Shown: positions 24,351 through 46,141 of the stretch, piece by piece | Position numbering within the stretch: the stretch's first letter is position 1 | Layout: each line of letters starts with the position of its first letter | IMG/VR virus record: IMGVR_UViG_3300028591_000078 | Location: 174,366 to 238,365 of that record | Strand: one strand, 5' to 3' | From: a virus | Lineage: Duplodnaviria > Caudoviricetes | DNA length: 64,000 nt | Notes under the pieces: model-generated | The model's input: only the letters and a program-made list of their open reading frames with translations | The model's database searches: none | Told to the model about the DNA's origin: nothing | Position numbers and translations under genes: made by a program

Positions 24351-24391
24351 ACCTATATAACTTAAGTGTTTTACACTTAAGTTATATAGGT
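24351..24391. promoter_or_regulatory. Palindromic switch promoter 1 (18-bp arms, loop TTTTA), pointing away from 24420
   Basis: acctatataacttaagtg-tttta-cacttaagttatataggt; minus strand AACT-TAAGTG-TA, plus strand AACT-TAAGTG-TT. Confidence 0.7.
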
Positions 24392-26028: not shown

Positions 26029-26058
26029 CTAAACTTAAAAGTAAACTTTTAAGTTTAG
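26029..26058. promoter_or_regulatory. Palindromic switch promoter 2 (13-bp arms), pointing away from 25980
   Basis: ctaaacttaaaag-taaa-cttttaagtttag; plus strand AACT-TAAAAG-TA. Confidence 0.7.
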
Positions 26059-27020: not shown

Positions 27021-27050
27021 CTAAACTTAAAAGTAAACTTTTAAGTTTAG
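27021..27050. promoter_or_regulatory. Palindromic switch promoter 4, pointing away from 26972
   Basis: Identical to 26029-26058; no gene is served in the direction it currently reads. Confidence 0.7.
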
Positions 27051-27157
27051 TTGCTTGTAAAATTTTACATATGGCCATACTGCCTAAGTATAAGAATGAT
27101 TAAAATTCTATATTTGATTAAATAATAAAGCCGTAGGGAAATTCCCTACGGCTAATT

Positions 27158-32653: not shown

Positions 32654-32683
32654 CTAAACTTAAAAGTAAACTTTTAAGTTTAG
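32654..32683. promoter_or_regulatory. Palindromic switch promoter 5, pointing away from 32607
   Basis: Identical to 26029-26058. Confidence 0.7.
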
Positions 32684-32770: not shown

Positions 32771-32845
32771 AACCTATATAACTTATTGGTTTTACCAATA
32801 AGTTATATAGGTTTAAATCGTGTAAAACACTTAAGTTATATAGGT
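32771..32845. promoter_or_regulatory. Palindromic switch promoter 6 (19-bp arms) plus half-site with flipped loop
   Basis: aacctatataacttattgg-tttta-ccaataagttatataggtt (minus strand AACT-TATTGG-TA), then gtg-taaaa-cacttaagttatataggt. Confidence 0.7.
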
Positions 32846-33625: not shown

Positions 33626-33688
33626 TATAAAACCCGTGTACCATTGGTACACGGGTATATTATTTTATTGAAAGCTCATTACGTTACC

Positions 33689-34060: not shown

Positions 34061-34465
34061 TTAATACACTACAAATACACCATACTTTATTGAACTGTCA
34101 CTTTTTACAATTAGTGTTGTTGCATTATTTGTATCTTTTGCTAAGTTAATATATGCTCCACCTCTACCAGCATTAACACTATAGTTCCAACCTATATTTC
34201 TACTAGTAATTTCCTCACCATTATAAGTAGTAAATACCATATCTTCAACTTTTATTATTACTGGAACTCTTACTGTAGTTTCTGTCTCCACATGGAGAGG
34301 TATAAGTACTATATATTTATAATTAGTATAATTAGGTATACTAACAGAATCATCCGTTGTTCTAGTACCAAAATATTTGATACCATTTATTACAAATCCA
34401 TTACTATAATCTGTTTTTTCAGTTAAGTTTTTTAAAGTTCCATTTTCATTTGCATAAATAGCCAT
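34061..34465 (-). CDS. Tail-tip/adhesin paralog 7
   Basis: MAIYANENGTLKNLT...NGFVINGIKYFG. Confidence 0.65.
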   Translation of the reverse strand: MAIYANENGTLKNLTEKTDYSNGFVINGIKYFGTRTTDDSVSIPNYTNYKYIVLIPLHVETETTVRVPVIIKVEDMVFTTYNGEEITSRNIGWNYSVNAGRGGAYINLAKDTNNATTLIVKSDSSIKYGVFVVY

Positions 34466-34594: not shown

Positions 34595-34624
34595 CTAAAC
34601 TTAAAAGTTTACTTTTAAGTTTAG
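34595..34624. promoter_or_regulatory. Palindromic switch promoter 8, pointing away from 34673
   Basis: ctaaacttaaaag-ttta-cttttaagtttag; minus strand AACT-TAAAAG-TA. Confidence 0.7.
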
Positions 34625-34672: not shown

Positions 34673-35128
34673 ATGGCCGTATATGTTAATGAGAATGGTA
34701 CAGTGCAAACGTTAGCTACAGATGGCGAACCATTAAACATGTCAGTTCAACATTATACAGCAAAATTTATTTATGCATATGCTCAGAGTAATCCATGGCG
34801 TGGATCTGGCTTTGAAGACCAAAGTTTTACTTTACCATTTACTCCAAAAGCTTTTGTTGTAGCTTATGATAATGCAAAAATGCCAGTAGAACACGCTGAC
34901 AGTACAAACAGTCATCGTATTATAACATCAAGAGATATTGCAATAGGTGATAACTCAATAGATATAACTGCCTCTTTTACCACTAACCATAAAAGCGTTT
35001 ATTATCATTATTTTAAAATTAATGGTAATACAGTCACTATACCAAAGACTACATATACTAGTTTTGCTCTTCCTTCGGTAGCATCTCACACTTTCATAAT
35101 AAATTTTGATGTAATCTTTTTCTATTAA
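34673..35128 (+). CDS. Tail-tip/adhesin paralog 8
   Basis: MAVYVNENGTVQTLAT; LPFTPKAFVV. Confidence 0.65.
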   Translation: MAVYVNENGTVQTLATDGEPLNMSVQHYTAKFIYAYAQSNPWRGSGFEDQSFTLPFTPKAFVVAYDNAKMPVEHADSTNSHRIITSRDIAIGDNSIDITASFTTNHKSVYYHYFKINGNTVTIPKTTYTSFALPSVASHTFIINFDVIFFY

Positions 35129-35166
35129 ACAAAATTTACCCACAGGGAAAACCCTGTGGGTATTTA

Positions 35167-35601
35167 TTATGTAAGTCCGAATACAAGATACTTAGGATAA
35201 TAGTTTGCACCATTGTCATGAAACTTAATATTTAATCCAGTAGAATTTATTAGAGTTGCTTTTATTATTAATCCACCTCTACCAGCAGAACCACTATAGG
35301 CCCATCCAACAGATCTAGTAGTTGCTCCATTAAGGCCTCCAGAAGTTTGAAAAGTTAAAGGTGTTTCTAATATAAACATTCCACAAGAAAGTCGCATGCT
35401 TGCGGTAGGATCATCAGGCTGTATAGGAAGTCCTATGATATATTTATATCCTGTATAATTAGCAATATCAATTCCGACTTCAGTACTAGCATGCTCTACA
35501 GTACCAAGATACTTGATACCATTGATTACAAAACCATCACCATAGTCAGTCTTGTTGGTCAGTTCTTTCATTACACTGTTTTCATTAGCATAAATCGCCA
35601 T
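35167..35601 (-). CDS. Tail-tip/adhesin paralog 9
   Basis: Start MAIYANENSVMKELT at 35601; DGFVINGIKYLG. Confidence 0.65.
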   Translation of the reverse strand: MAIYANENSVMKELTNKTDYGDGFVINGIKYLGTVEHASTEVGIDIANYTGYKYIIGLPIQPDDPTASMRLSCGMFILETPLTFQTSGGLNGATTRSVGWAYSGSAGRGGLIIKATLINSTGLNIKFHDNGANYYPKYLVFGLT

Positions 35602-35642
35602 AACTCTTAAATCTCCCATATATAAAATTTTCAGTTTTATGG

Positions 35643-35685
35643 CTTAAGAATTATTACTAAGAACTTCTTAGTAATAATTCTTAAG
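35643..35685 (+). promoter_or_regulatory. Palindromic switch promoter 9 (21-bp arms, 1-nt centre), ON for 35732 and OFF for 35601
   Basis: cttaagaattattactaagaa-C-ttcttagtaataattcttaag; plus AACT-TCTTAG-TA, minus AAGT-TCTTAG-TA. Confidence 0.75.
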
Positions 35686-35731
35686 GTGAATTATGATAAA
35701 ACTGAAAATAAAATCATAGAAGGTTTTATTT

Positions 35732-36166
35732 ATGGCAGTATATGCAAATGAAAATGGCAATATTAAGGAATTAACTAGTAAGGTAGACCTTGGTAATGGC
35801 TTTGTTATAAACGGTATAGAATACTTAGGAGAATATCTTCCTTCTCAAAGAGATGGAACTTTTACTTTACCAAAACCATATACAAGCTATAAGTATTTAG
35901 TTGTGTATGATTTCTATGGTAAGAAAAATAATGGAGAAGCTAGCTGGACTAATGTAAAACAGCATTCATGCCTAGAATTTATAGATACATCACTGATTAA
36001 TCCAAGTGATAGATACACATATGATGGATATATGGTTGGAGGGGATGATCCAACTACAAGTAACAAATTATGCTGTATTATTGAATTTGGTAATACTACG
36101 ACATTAAGTATAGACTGTGGAAATTATTATAGTTATAATAGTATAAAATTTTTCGGTATATACTAA
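35732..36166 (+). CDS. Tail-tip/adhesin paralog 10
   Basis: MAVYANENGNIKELT...NGFVINGIEYLG. Confidence 0.65.
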   Translation: MAVYANENGNIKELTSKVDLGNGFVINGIEYLGEYLPSQRDGTFTLPKPYTSYKYLVVYDFYGKKNNGEASWTNVKQHSCLEFIDTSLINPSDRYTYDGYMVGGDDPTTSNKLCCIIEFGNTTTLSIDCGNYYSYNSIKFFGIY

Positions 36167-36171
36167 AAAAT

Positions 36172-36196
36172 AAACGGGTGGAAGTTCCACCCGTTT
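36172..36196. terminator. Bidirectional terminator ending the array
   Basis: aaacgggtggaa-g-ttccacccgttt with flanking A/T tracts. Confidence 0.75.
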
Positions 36197-38561: not shown

Positions 38562-38638
38562 ATATGAATTCCTCCTTTCTATTACACTATAATAGTATAT
38601 ATCTGAATTTATTTTAAATATCATAATAAACACTTGAA

Positions 38639-43497: not shown

Positions 43498-45039
43498 GTG
43501 TCTAGGAAGACAGACATAACAAATACAACACTAGAGGAAGAGATAAAAAATTATGGAAACTCTATAGTTTCTATAGATGACCCTGTCCAAGCAGTGCGTC
43601 AAATAGCAGATGTCTATATTGGGGCACTTGGAAACCCCGCCTTTTTGACTATGACTAGAGAGATCATTCAGAACTCATTTGATGAAGATATGAAAGGTTT
43701 TTCTAGTAGTAGAAACGTTTATGTATGGTTTGATGAACGTGATCTGAGAGTTACTGTCCAAGATTCTGGTCGAGGAATTCCTGAAGGAATGATCGATACA
43801 TTATTTGGAAAACTTCACTCGTCCTCAAATTATAATAAAAAGCCAGGTGAGTATTCTGCAGGTAAGAATGGTCAAGGTGGTAGCTTAGTTAATATGCTGT
43901 CACATACATTTACTGTAGATACATTTGTTCTTGGGAAAGGAAGACATGCTGAGTTTATTGAAGGACATATGTGGAAGAAGGGAGAAGTTCCTATTCCTAA
44001 TTCTGAAGGTAAACAAGGTACAATTATAAGCTTCGTACCTAACCAGGATGTTATAGGTCAGTTGACTATAACTTGGTTAGATGTATATAAACTTATAGAA
44101 GTCATTATGCCTGCAACCAGAATAGGTCTGAATATATTTATGGAGTTCATTGATAAGAATGGTAAACTTCATAAAGAATCTTTGACTAATACTGATGGTA
44201 TAATGCATCACTTGTATAATATGACTCAGTCTCCTCTCATTAAGCCAATCTTAATGAGCGCTGATACTGGATATTTCAAGGCAGATATAGCATTGACTTA
44301 TGATAGTACAATGACTTTTACAGATGAAGAAATTATAGGATTATGTAATACATGTCCTACTGTAGGAGGATCTCATATAGAAGGTCTTCTTAATGGTGTA
44401 TGTAACTTCTTCCGTAAGTATATGAATAATATATTCCTTGCTGGACAGAAGTCTAAGAAACCTCTCACTGTAATGAATTCTGATATAAAGGCTGGACTCA
44501 AAGCAAGTATATCAGCATTCTGTCTTAAAGCGTCTTATACAGGTCAGTCAAAAGAAGTTCTCTATGTTCCTGAAATGGTGCCTTTCGTATCAGGATTGGT
44601 TACTAAAGAACTTGATAACTGGGCTAAGACTAATCCGAACGACTTAAAGAAACTCTGTCAGTATTTCAAAGATATTGCAGAGGTTAGAAGTAAGTCTGAA
44701 GAAGGTAGAGTAAAACTCTCTACTAAGTATGCTACTAGTGTAATTGGTGGATTACCTAAGAAGTATGTAAAACCGAATGGTAAAAAGAATCTTGAACTCT
44801 TTATAGTTGAGGGAGATTCAGCTCTTGGTCCTGCCAGATTAGGTAGAGATCCTGAGAGGCAAGGTATATTCCCTATAAGAGGAAAAATATCTAATGCTAT
44901 AACAACTCCAAGAGATAAGTTCTTACAGAATGAAGAAGTAAGTGCTATTCTTAATATCTTGGATGCTGGATATGGTAGATCTTTTGATATCAATAAATGT
45001 AAGTTTGAAAAGGTAGTAATGATGTGTGATGCAGACCCT
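43498..45039 (+). CDS. gyrB: DNA gyrase/topoisomerase II subunit B, exon 1
   Basis: REIIQNSFDE, DSGRGIP, EGDSA, PIRGK; ends MCDADP. Confidence 0.9.
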
Positions 45040-45340
45040 AGACCGTTGGGGCTTCGGGGAGCGATCCTCGTTGAAAAATCTCTTTAACTGCTGGAAGTGT
45101 CTAATGCTTGATTGACTACAACATAGCTTGAAAAGGCAAGTGTGAATGTGACGAAAGTCGGAAAGAACTAATCAAGATAGTATATGAGGATAGTAACTCT
45201 AAGTACTTTATAATGTACTGATCAGCAGCCAAGATCCGCTAAGGATAAGGTTCAACGACTAGTTGAAAAACGTAGGGCCGAAAGGTTCGAAATGGGAGAC
45301 ATCTCTATGAGATGATGATATAGTCTAACCAACAATGTTG
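45040..45340 (+). ncRNA. Group I self-splicing intron, no homing endonuclease
   Basis: P aactgctggaa, Q atcagcagccaag, R gttcaacgactag, S gatatagtct; 5' exon ends in U; omega-G at 45340; splicing restores DADP-DGNHIR. Confidence 0.9.
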
Positions 45341-46141
45341 GACGGCAATCACATTAGATCATTACTTCTCCGCTTATTCTTGCTTTATTGTGAACCATTA
45401 GTAGCCTCTGGAAGATTATATGGAGCAGTTCCGCCTCTGTATAATATGACTAAGAATGGTAAGAATGTATACTTCACTGATATGAAGGACTACATCGATT
45501 ATGTACAGAAAGAGTTCATGAAGAACAATGTAATCTGTGATGTAAATGGAAAGCAGTTACCTTATGCACAGCTTTCTAGAGTACTCAGAGATAATATGTA
45601 TTATGTAGAAACTCTGGAGAATACTGCAACAACCTTTGCAATAGATCCTGTTCTCTTAGAGATCGTCCTTATTAATAAGGATATGCCTTTCAATAAGTTT
45701 AAAGCTTATATTGAAAAGCTCTATAGATTTGTAACTGTATCTAAGAATGGTAATACAGTTATCATATCTGGTATAGTAAATGGTCTTATGGATAATATCT
45801 TCCTTGATGATCGTTTACTTAGTTTCTGTGGATCTATACTGCAGGCTATCAAACATTCGCCAAACTACTTTATTATGAATGGGCAGATGGTTTCTTTGTA
45901 TGGATTGCTTAAAGCATTTGATACTACAAAGCCTCCTCATATAGAACGTAATAAAGGTCTTGGTGAGATGGACCCTGACCAGTTATCAGAATCAACCCTG
46001 TACCCTGGATCTAATAGAACTCTGATTAGATATACTGTAGAGAATATCAAGAAAGAGATCGAACAGATTAGATTCATTGATGGTAACAGATCCGAACTTC
46101 TGAAGGACGTAAAAGTTACTAAGGAAGATGTGCTTGGATAA
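45341..46141 (+). CDS. gyrB: DNA gyrase/topoisomerase II subunit B, exon 2
   Basis: DGNHIRSLL, PPLY, RNKGLGEM. Confidence 0.9.
   Translation, partial: DGNHIRSLLLRLFLLYCEPLVASGRLYGAVPPLYNMTKNGKNVYFTDMKDYIDYVQKEFMKNNVICDVNGKQLPYAQLSRVLRDNMYYVETLENTATTFAIDPVLLEIVLINKDMPFNKFKAYIEKLYRFVTVSKNGNTVIISGIVNGLMDNIFLDDRLLSFCGSILQAIKHSPNYFIMNGQMVSLYGLLKAFDTTKPPHIERNKGLGEMDPDQLSESTLYPGSNRTLIRYTVENIKKEIEQIRFIDGNRSELLKDVKVTKEDVLG

Follow-up and report, generated by a model that had tools for sequence, protein, structure and literature searches.

The gene pair described here lies within the final 64 kb of a 238,365-bp phage genome (34.7% GC, assembly ends overlapping). This stretch of 64,000 nucleotides was analysed as a whole and is designated the window, and positions refer to it unless a contig is named. 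The source is a rumen jumbo phage. Its genes include those for gyrase/topoisomerase II subunits and for a DnaB-like helicase and, neighbouring the pair, those for a tail-fibre protein (phrog_4492) and for a beta-helix protein. The two genes are divergent paralogs, and the region between them contains a long perfect palindrome. The features of the locus are arranged as follows.

35137-35162, bidirectional terminator-like hairpin that ends the minus-strand gene unit
35167-35601, minus strand, paralog of the MA(I/V)Y(A/V)NE(N/D)G family, 144 aa, GFVINGI subgroup, with the RBS GGGAGA at 35617-35612
35627-35640, outer left arm attttcagttttat, within the leader of the minus-strand gene and mirroring 35696-35709
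35643-35685, perfect palindrome of 43 bp, with 21-nt arms and a 1-nt centre
35655-35666, minus strand, mirror site that reads the non-consensus AAGTTCTTAGTA with the C allele and AACTTCTTAGTA with the G allele
35662-35673, plus strand, AR9-type late-promoter consensus AACTTCTTAGTA with the C allele, predicted start A at 35673
35664, flipping centre base, C in the window
35696-35709, outer right arm ataaaactgaaaat, within the leader of the plus-strand gene
35732-36166, plus strand, paralog of the MA(I/V)Y(A/V)NE(N/D)G family, 144 aa, GFVINGI subgroup, with the RBS GAAGG at 35719-35723
36172-36196, bidirectional terminator-like hairpin that ends the plus-strand gene unit, with a 1-nt centre of G, C or T

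Both flanking genes are members of a ten-protein family encoded in the window; these small proteins have the N-terminus M(A/S)(I/V/L)(Y/W)(A/V)NE(N/D)G in common and are divergent over the remainder. The first-pass annotation had assigned the pair to a single GFVINGI subfamily, and the motif is indeed present in both. The ORF of the minus-strand gene extends to 35619, and the family N-terminus MAIYANE begins at 35601. Each gene is monocistronic and is closed by its own terminator-like hairpin. Among contigs of related phages, the minus-strand gene is intact in all those that cover 35167-35601 (dN/dS 0.34-0.82), and the plus-strand gene is intact in the covering contigs except L008, which carries a different cassette body there (dN/dS 0.24-0.30). 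By these measures both genes appear to be functional and under purifying selection, and on the same grounds both must be expressed at some time. The products had also been called adhesins, an identity that the searches did not support. Pfam and PHROG gave no family match for the paralog products, and an AF2 model of a paralog, generated from a 13-row alignment, reached a pLDDT of 46 and was unusable for fold inference. Only 17 cluster representatives of the family were found in a set of 1.84 billion proteins, and a search of the ESM Atlas returned unnamed clusters only. Only the late-type promoters and the adjoining tail-fibre genes hint at a virion or tail role for the products.

The 43-bp palindrome is far beyond chance. 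Its inner arms (35643-35663 and 35665-35685, 21 nt each) are 100% complementary around a 1-nt spacer, the C at 35664, and the 14-nt outer arms (35627-35640 and 35696-35709) are also 100% complementary; both the palindrome with its lone central C and the outward extension of the repeat had been described beforehand and are correct. By our own estimate, perfect 21-nt arms are expected about 1e-6 times by chance in 64 kb of AT-rich sequence. The 238-kb genome contains 39 perfect palindromes with arms of at least 12 nt, of which 35643-35685 is the longest. As single-stranded DNA the region folds with -28.2 kcal/mol (z = -13.3), a value matched by 0 of 200 shuffled sequences. The leaders of the two flanking genes are homologous in inverted orientation, that is, they are mirror copies. 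Rfam returned only hairpin look-alikes below threshold at the palindrome (MIR781, 26 bits; gathering score 88). A telomere or packaging site was considered and rejected, because contigs of 94-239 kb traverse the palindrome and the assembly ends are located elsewhere.

With C at the centre, the plus strand reads AACTTCTTAGTA and the minus strand reads AAGTTCTTAGTA, as first reported. The predicted start at 35673 gives the plus-strand gene a 58-nt leader to its ATG at 35732. With the G allele, the predicted start lies at 35655 on the minus strand, with a 53-nt leader to the ATG at 35601. All promoter positions other than -9 are mirror-symmetric, reading AA-N-TT and then TCTTAG-TA on either strand, and therefore the central base pair alone sets which strand reads AAC.

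The consensus AAC(A/T)-N6-TA, likewise proposed from the letters alone, proved to be real in the genome, with C needed at -9, and it matches the AR9 nvRNAP promoter. Across the 238-kb genome, AACA-N6-TA occurs at 2.54 per kb in intergenic sequence versus 0.45 per kb in coding sequence, a 5.6-fold difference, and 46 of the 58 intergenic occurrences lie upstream of a gene on the same strand; AACT-N6-TA behaves similarly. The usual position of these sites is 25-33 nt 5' of the ATG, with AGGAGG in between. When sites of the form AA?W-N6-TAA were sorted by the base at -9, those located 8-70 nt upstream of a start codon numbered 61/136 for C, 4/251 for G, 14/150 for A and 19/178 for T, and positions -11, -10, -1 and +1 had a base specificity similar to that at -9. 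The 60 well-placed sites favour T at -7, A at -3, G or A at -2 and A at +2, and the focal site agrees with all of these extended preferences, having G at -2. At -8 the focal site has T, where the AR9 consensus has A; T is likewise found at -8 in 20 of the 60 well-placed promoters of the genome. Promoter-like AAC(A/T)-N6-TA sites number roughly 75-105 genome-wide. A promoter-like AACACTTGAATA site is present at 38629. Between 35601 and 35732, neither the motif listing nor a sigma-70 scan revealed another promoter-like element; the sigma-70 scan placed no site within the intergenic region and gave fewer sites than were obtained in shuffled sequences. As a promoter-like signal of this phage, AAC(A/T)-N6-TA is statistically strong, as far as sequence statistics go.

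The phage encodes a split multisubunit RNA polymerase (RNAP), the beta-like and beta'-like fragments of which are encoded by separate genes. PF00562 and PF00623 both scored above cut-off, in separate ORFs of 711 aa and 499 aa, and the loci cited for the split RNAP and the promoter-like sites of the genome (G000) are C1:364-1236 and C1:158909-159319. The beta' N-terminal fragment is nearest to those of phiR1-37, AR9, PBS1, Goe21 and BpSp, with 30-32% identity. The AR9 nvRNAP promoter has been determined experimentally as the template sequence 3'-UUGU-N6-AU(+1)-5', which corresponds to AACA-N6-TA on the non-template strand (PMC9209446). A homologue of AR9 gp226, the promoter-specificity subunit, was not found in the genome (best tblastn E-value 1.9); with a core enzyme about 30% identical, such a homologue may escape detection. 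We infer the focal promoter from the motif statistics and from a polymerase that is only 30% identical to that of AR9.

Relatives were gathered as homologues of the plus-strand gene from rumen and gut metagenome assemblies of cattle and sheep. INPHARED contained no DNA or protein match to the region, to a 1224-aa protein or to a paralog, and scans of IMG/VR with the palindrome pattern and with two proteins gave no relatives. A pattern scan of JGI metagenomes gave eight matches to the 21-nt core (centre A, T or G), which were rejected as unrelated sequences that match by chance or through coding motifs. Two of the relatives (L009 and L011) lack a group I intron of about 301 bp and carry a single 780-aa ORF; in the window this intron (45029-45341; Rfam RF00028, 62.2 bits, gathering score 50, E = 2.8e-15) splits a topoisomerase II/gyrB-like gene into 43498-45087 and 45335-46141.

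The state of the centre base was counted in 24 distinct contigs, including the window, that represent at least five studies and four assemblers. They divide as follows.

C allele, 9 contigs: the window, L008, L009, L016-L018 and L023-L025
G allele, 15 contigs: L001, L010-L015, L019-L022, L026, L027, L040 and L044

The first-pass annotation had predicted that a G allele exists and that 35664 holds only C or G, and had made its reading depend on G occurring in some population or relative. Neither A nor T was found at the centre, and G is common and coexists with C in the same sample. The arms of the palindrome are invariant in the 20 contigs that cover it fully and in the window, as well as in L001 and L027 as far as these cover it. 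Ten contigs that are identical over the 580 bp of 35610-36190 include four with C and six with G; members of this haplotype show 0-4 differences elsewhere per 2-11 kb, whereas 24 of the 45 pairs are unlike at the centre. The centre base and the SNP at 34974 are present in all four combinations, and both centre states are present in at least three haplotype backgrounds. In L009 (MEGAHIT) and L011 (Logan), which were assembled from the same run, ERR2027900, the centre is the sole difference in an overlap of 11,545 bp. Similarly, the genome of the window was assembled independently as L026 (ENA, 238,895 bp), and over 3,435 bp the two are unlike at 35664 only.

In SRR8436538, the probable source run, G is linked to the left flank in the Logan contig L027, whose last position is 35672, and C is linked to the right flank in the neighbouring 19.5-kb Logan contig, whose first position is 35656. 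By our own reasoning for a k=31 graph, a break at the centre +/-8 means that both alleles are present, since a pure population would be unbroken: every k-mer that contains the centre also reaches a flank and is thus unique. Coexistence of both orientations in one population was seen between assemblies, not as read counts. A larger inversion between the outer arms was rejected, because the asymmetric stretch that separates each outer arm from its inner arm is the same in the G-allele contigs. We take the C/G heterogeneity to be real and recurrent, and the rate of flipping is presumably orders of magnitude above that of point substitution.

The focal palindrome is one of seven in the 238-kb genome that have the promoter consensus across the centre, all of which are located within an 11-kb paralog array; of the approximately 60 ordinary promoters elsewhere in the genome, none is palindromic. 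The six sister palindromes are listed here.

34595-34624, centre 34609-34610, type-A palindromic promoter between 34061-34465 (minus strand) and 34673-35128 (plus strand)
24351-24391, 26029-26058, 27021-27050, 32654-32683 and 32771-32813, five further AT-rich palindromes with AAC(A/T)-N6-TA across the centre

In the type-A palindromes the centre gives the +1 A of TA, and in the focal palindrome it gives the C of AAC, in line with the earlier suggestion of a second design of the same logic. The window and most relatives have TT at 34609-34610, and the AA flip puts AACTTAAAAGTA on the plus strand. All four combinations of the states at 34609-34610 and 35664 occur, which indicates that the two centres flip independently. 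The consensus of the five further palindromes faces away from the nearest paralog in the window, and their targets are a far divergent gene (150-216-nt leaders) or a terminator about 100 nt off. Face-to-face promoters are present in the array at 32657 (plus strand) and 32793 (minus strand). Since most of the sister palindromes are aimed away from the paralog closest to them, simple ON/OFF control of each adjacent gene does not describe how the array works.

In L003 and L004 the same module lies between a different pair of paralogs, and a compensatory C>T / G>A change in the arms keeps both the palindrome and the motif (AACTTCTTAATA). The same palindromic leader is found with other gene bodies at L003:1118-1160 and L008:390-432. 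The pair behind the module in L003 encodes proteins of 220 aa and 128 aa, and the plus-strand gene of L008 is only 43% identical. In L023 the set of cassettes that lies between the fibre genes and the focal pair is a different one. The cassette array is modular and the palindromic leader portable.

Differences at the centres of other palindromes and hairpins were also identified between the window and its relatives.

34595-34624, palindrome flip, TT/AA, with AA in L002, L016, L017 and L020
26141-26169, palindrome flip, TTT/AAA
24246-24275, terminator-type hairpin flip, ATTA/TAAT
27129-27153, terminator-type hairpin flip, A/T
33632-33656, terminator-type hairpin flip, T/A
36172-36196, terminator-type hairpin with centre 36184, G/C and also T
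35137-35162, terminator-type hairpin with a loop difference between haplotypes, AAAA/CTTT

The variants at the focal and sister palindromes are exact reverse complements of the spacer (C/G, TT/AA, TTT/AAA, ATTA/TAAT and A/T). The terminator-type hairpins that show loop differences are GC-richer. Inversion of the centre is a kind of mutation to which perfect palindromes of this lineage are generally prone, made use of at promoters at most and not the work of a dedicated machine, and since terminator-type hairpins flip too, flipping as such requires no selective explanation. Within the near-clonal haplotype, only the centres of the promoter palindromes at 35664 and 34609-34610 vary, and the terminator centres follow the haplotypes. 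Such promoter-only variation is compatible with flipping that becomes more frequent as the arms lengthen (here 21 and 14 bp, AT-rich), with selection, or with both.

No match to serine or tyrosine recombinases (PF00239 and PF00589) was found in the 238-kb genome, and a host enzyme is possible. Inversion of the spacer of an inverted repeat by template switching is a described class of mutation (PMC8604942), and 'small inversions' of hairpin loops are known in chloroplast DNA (PMC6824564). Because no recombinase was found, template switching is a likely source of the inversion. The most likely routes of the flip would be this type of inverted-repeat spacer inversion or short-patch recombination between the 21-bp arms.

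We consider it fairly probable that the palindrome is a single late promoter of the AR9-like RNAP that two divergent paralogs have in common, aimed by its centre base and flipped in the absence of a recombinase. With C on the plus strand, the promoter would fire rightwards into 35732-36166 from near 35673, and with G it would fire leftwards into 35167-35601 from near 35655. Transcription would follow the consensus, and expression of the two genes would be mutually exclusive. As the centre would change between C and G at high frequency, the phage population would be a mixture of two expression states, and the biological role may be to vary a small, putatively tail-associated protein. Several observations argue for a switch rather than a mere mutational hotspot. 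All seven promoter-spanning palindromes are confined to the paralog array, and two different designs give the same result. Two monocistronic genes with mirror leaders have no promoter-like element other than the palindrome, and both genes are intact and under purifying selection. In addition, the module recurs beside other paralogs in L003, L004 and L008.

An alternative that we regard as unlikely is that the flip is real but a neutral by-product of replication, and that both genes are expressed whatever the centre base. The palindrome might then serve as the operator of a dimeric regulator, or as a cruciform or hairpin that loads polymerase both ways, or it might be the relic of an inverted duplication, with which the mirror-copy leaders are consistent. 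The centre inversions at terminator hairpins and other palindromes of the relatives also speak for neutrality. A metatranscriptome library holds one 150-nt contig in each gene at depth 2, as expression of both would give, but DNA carry-over or a mixed population would look alike, and the contigs are uninformative on strand, start and allele; a further RNA run yielded no contig in the region. A neutral flip is harder to reconcile with the base preference at -9, where G is at background (4/251) and C is not (61/136), and with the failure to find a second promoter-like site between the genes. It also leaves aside the restriction of promoter-spanning palindromes to the paralog array, when none of the ordinary promoters is palindromic, and the fact that within a haplotype 35664 and 34609-34610 flip but the terminator centres do not.

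It is quite improbable that C and G are two old, stable alleles of co-circulating strains that have been shuffled by homologous recombination with no ongoing flipping. The contigs do derive from pooled rumen communities with several strains, and recombination could generate the four centre/SNP combinations as well as recurrent mutation could. However, the same-sample pairs differ here alone over 3.4 and 11.5 kb, the ten contigs identical over 580 bp hold both states, and each state is found on at least three haplotype backgrounds. Moreover, the only variant is the exact reverse complement C/G, as is the case for TT/AA, TTT/AAA and ATTA/TAAT at other palindromes. An artefact, in which fold-back chimeras or ambiguity in the de Bruijn graph lead assemblers to call C or G at random, is hardly credible: contigs do break at the palindrome (L001, L027 and one further record) and fold-back molecules would yield k-mers that link the left flank to G, but by our own reasoning the centre is tied to a flank at k of at least 23, so that a pure-C population is an unbranched path, MEGAHIT k127 and k141 contigs (94 kb and 239 kb) traverse the left flank, G or C, and the right flank, the same flank on both sides expected of fold-back chimeras was not observed, and the 9:15 split is spread over at least five studies and four assemblers.

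The reading of the palindrome as a promoter aimed by its centre base can be extended, as a tentative proposal in which we have less than even confidence, to the array as a whole. The seven palindromes in the 11-kb array of ten paralogous small tail-region genes may represent minimal invertons, a new class of phase variation in which palindromic phage-RNAP promoters are re-aimed by recombinase-free inversion of a 1-3-bp centre; through independent flips, the outcome would be a combinatorial mixture of virions in each lysate and bet-hedging in host range, achieved by way of replication errors at designed palindromes. More speculatively, template positions -8 to -10 would be exposed in the 3-nt loop of an extruded cruciform; AR9-type enzymes read these bases single-stranded, and such exposure could account for the palindromic form of these promoters.

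All known switches of promoter direction depend, to our knowledge, on a dedicated recombinase and require hundreds of base pairs of invertible DNA. If the favoured reading is true, the entire switch consists of one base pair in a 43-bp palindrome and is powered by ordinary errors of replication or recombination, and it would be missed by inverton finders such as PhaseFinder, which seek larger segments. A literature search found no description of such a one-base promoter switch. If transcription follows the consensus, the palindrome would represent a very small programmable toggle, lytic phages would have a new way of becoming phenotypically heterogeneous, and AR9-type template-strand promoters would be shown to permit a switchable direction. 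As a caution, C/G 'SNPs' at the palindrome centres of metagenomic phages may be phase states and not strain markers.

Compared with the late promoters of AR9/PBS1-type nvRNAPs, the promoter-like sites described here have the same motif skeleton and spacing, the phage also encodes a split multisubunit RNAP, and the motif lies at a fixed short distance before the RBS and ATG genome-wide. They differ in having T or A at -8, and in that a gp226 homologue was not detected. AR9, PBS1 and phiR1-37, whose RNAPs are about 30% identical to that of this phage, are dU-DNA phages. We know of no report, from reading that was not a systematic search, of AR9 promoters that lie inside palindromes or switch direction. 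The virion RNAP of phage N4 is a single-subunit enzyme that recognises a stem of 5-7 bp with a 3-nt loop. There, as with the predicted promoter here, the promoter of a phage polymerase coincides with a hairpin-forming inverted repeat; the phage here encodes a split multisubunit enzyme.

In the G segment of Mu (Gin) and the C segment of P1 (Cin), a serine invertase inverts kilobase coding segments and swaps the C-termini of coding sequences. There, as may be the case here, inversion of DNA alternates paralogous tail-region genes and lysates are mixed; in the present locus only the direction of a promoter would change, and the tail role of the products is putative. Invertible promoters (invertons) include fimS of E. 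coli, hin of Salmonella and the capsule promoters of Bacteroides. The focal locus is like these in that a promoter is associated with inverted repeats, two orientations are present in one population, and alternative surface-related genes would be driven. In contrast, the invertible segment here measures 1 bp, not hundreds, a search of the phage genome gave no site-specific recombinase, the inverted repeats are the promoter itself, and two genes would be toggled rather than one turned ON or OFF.

Template-switch spacer inversions and the small inversions of chloroplasts share with the focal palindrome an exact reverse complement between perfect arms that is recurrent and homoplasious (PMC8604942; PMC6824564), and here the arms are kept perfect, including by a compensatory change. 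Those inversions were described without a regulatory read-out, whereas here the spacer is the critical base of a predicted promoter, and the flip rate is saturated among near-identical genomes. The palindrome lacks two defining features of invertons, the recombinase and the segment length, and the best description is promoter re-aiming through inversion of an inverted-repeat spacer.
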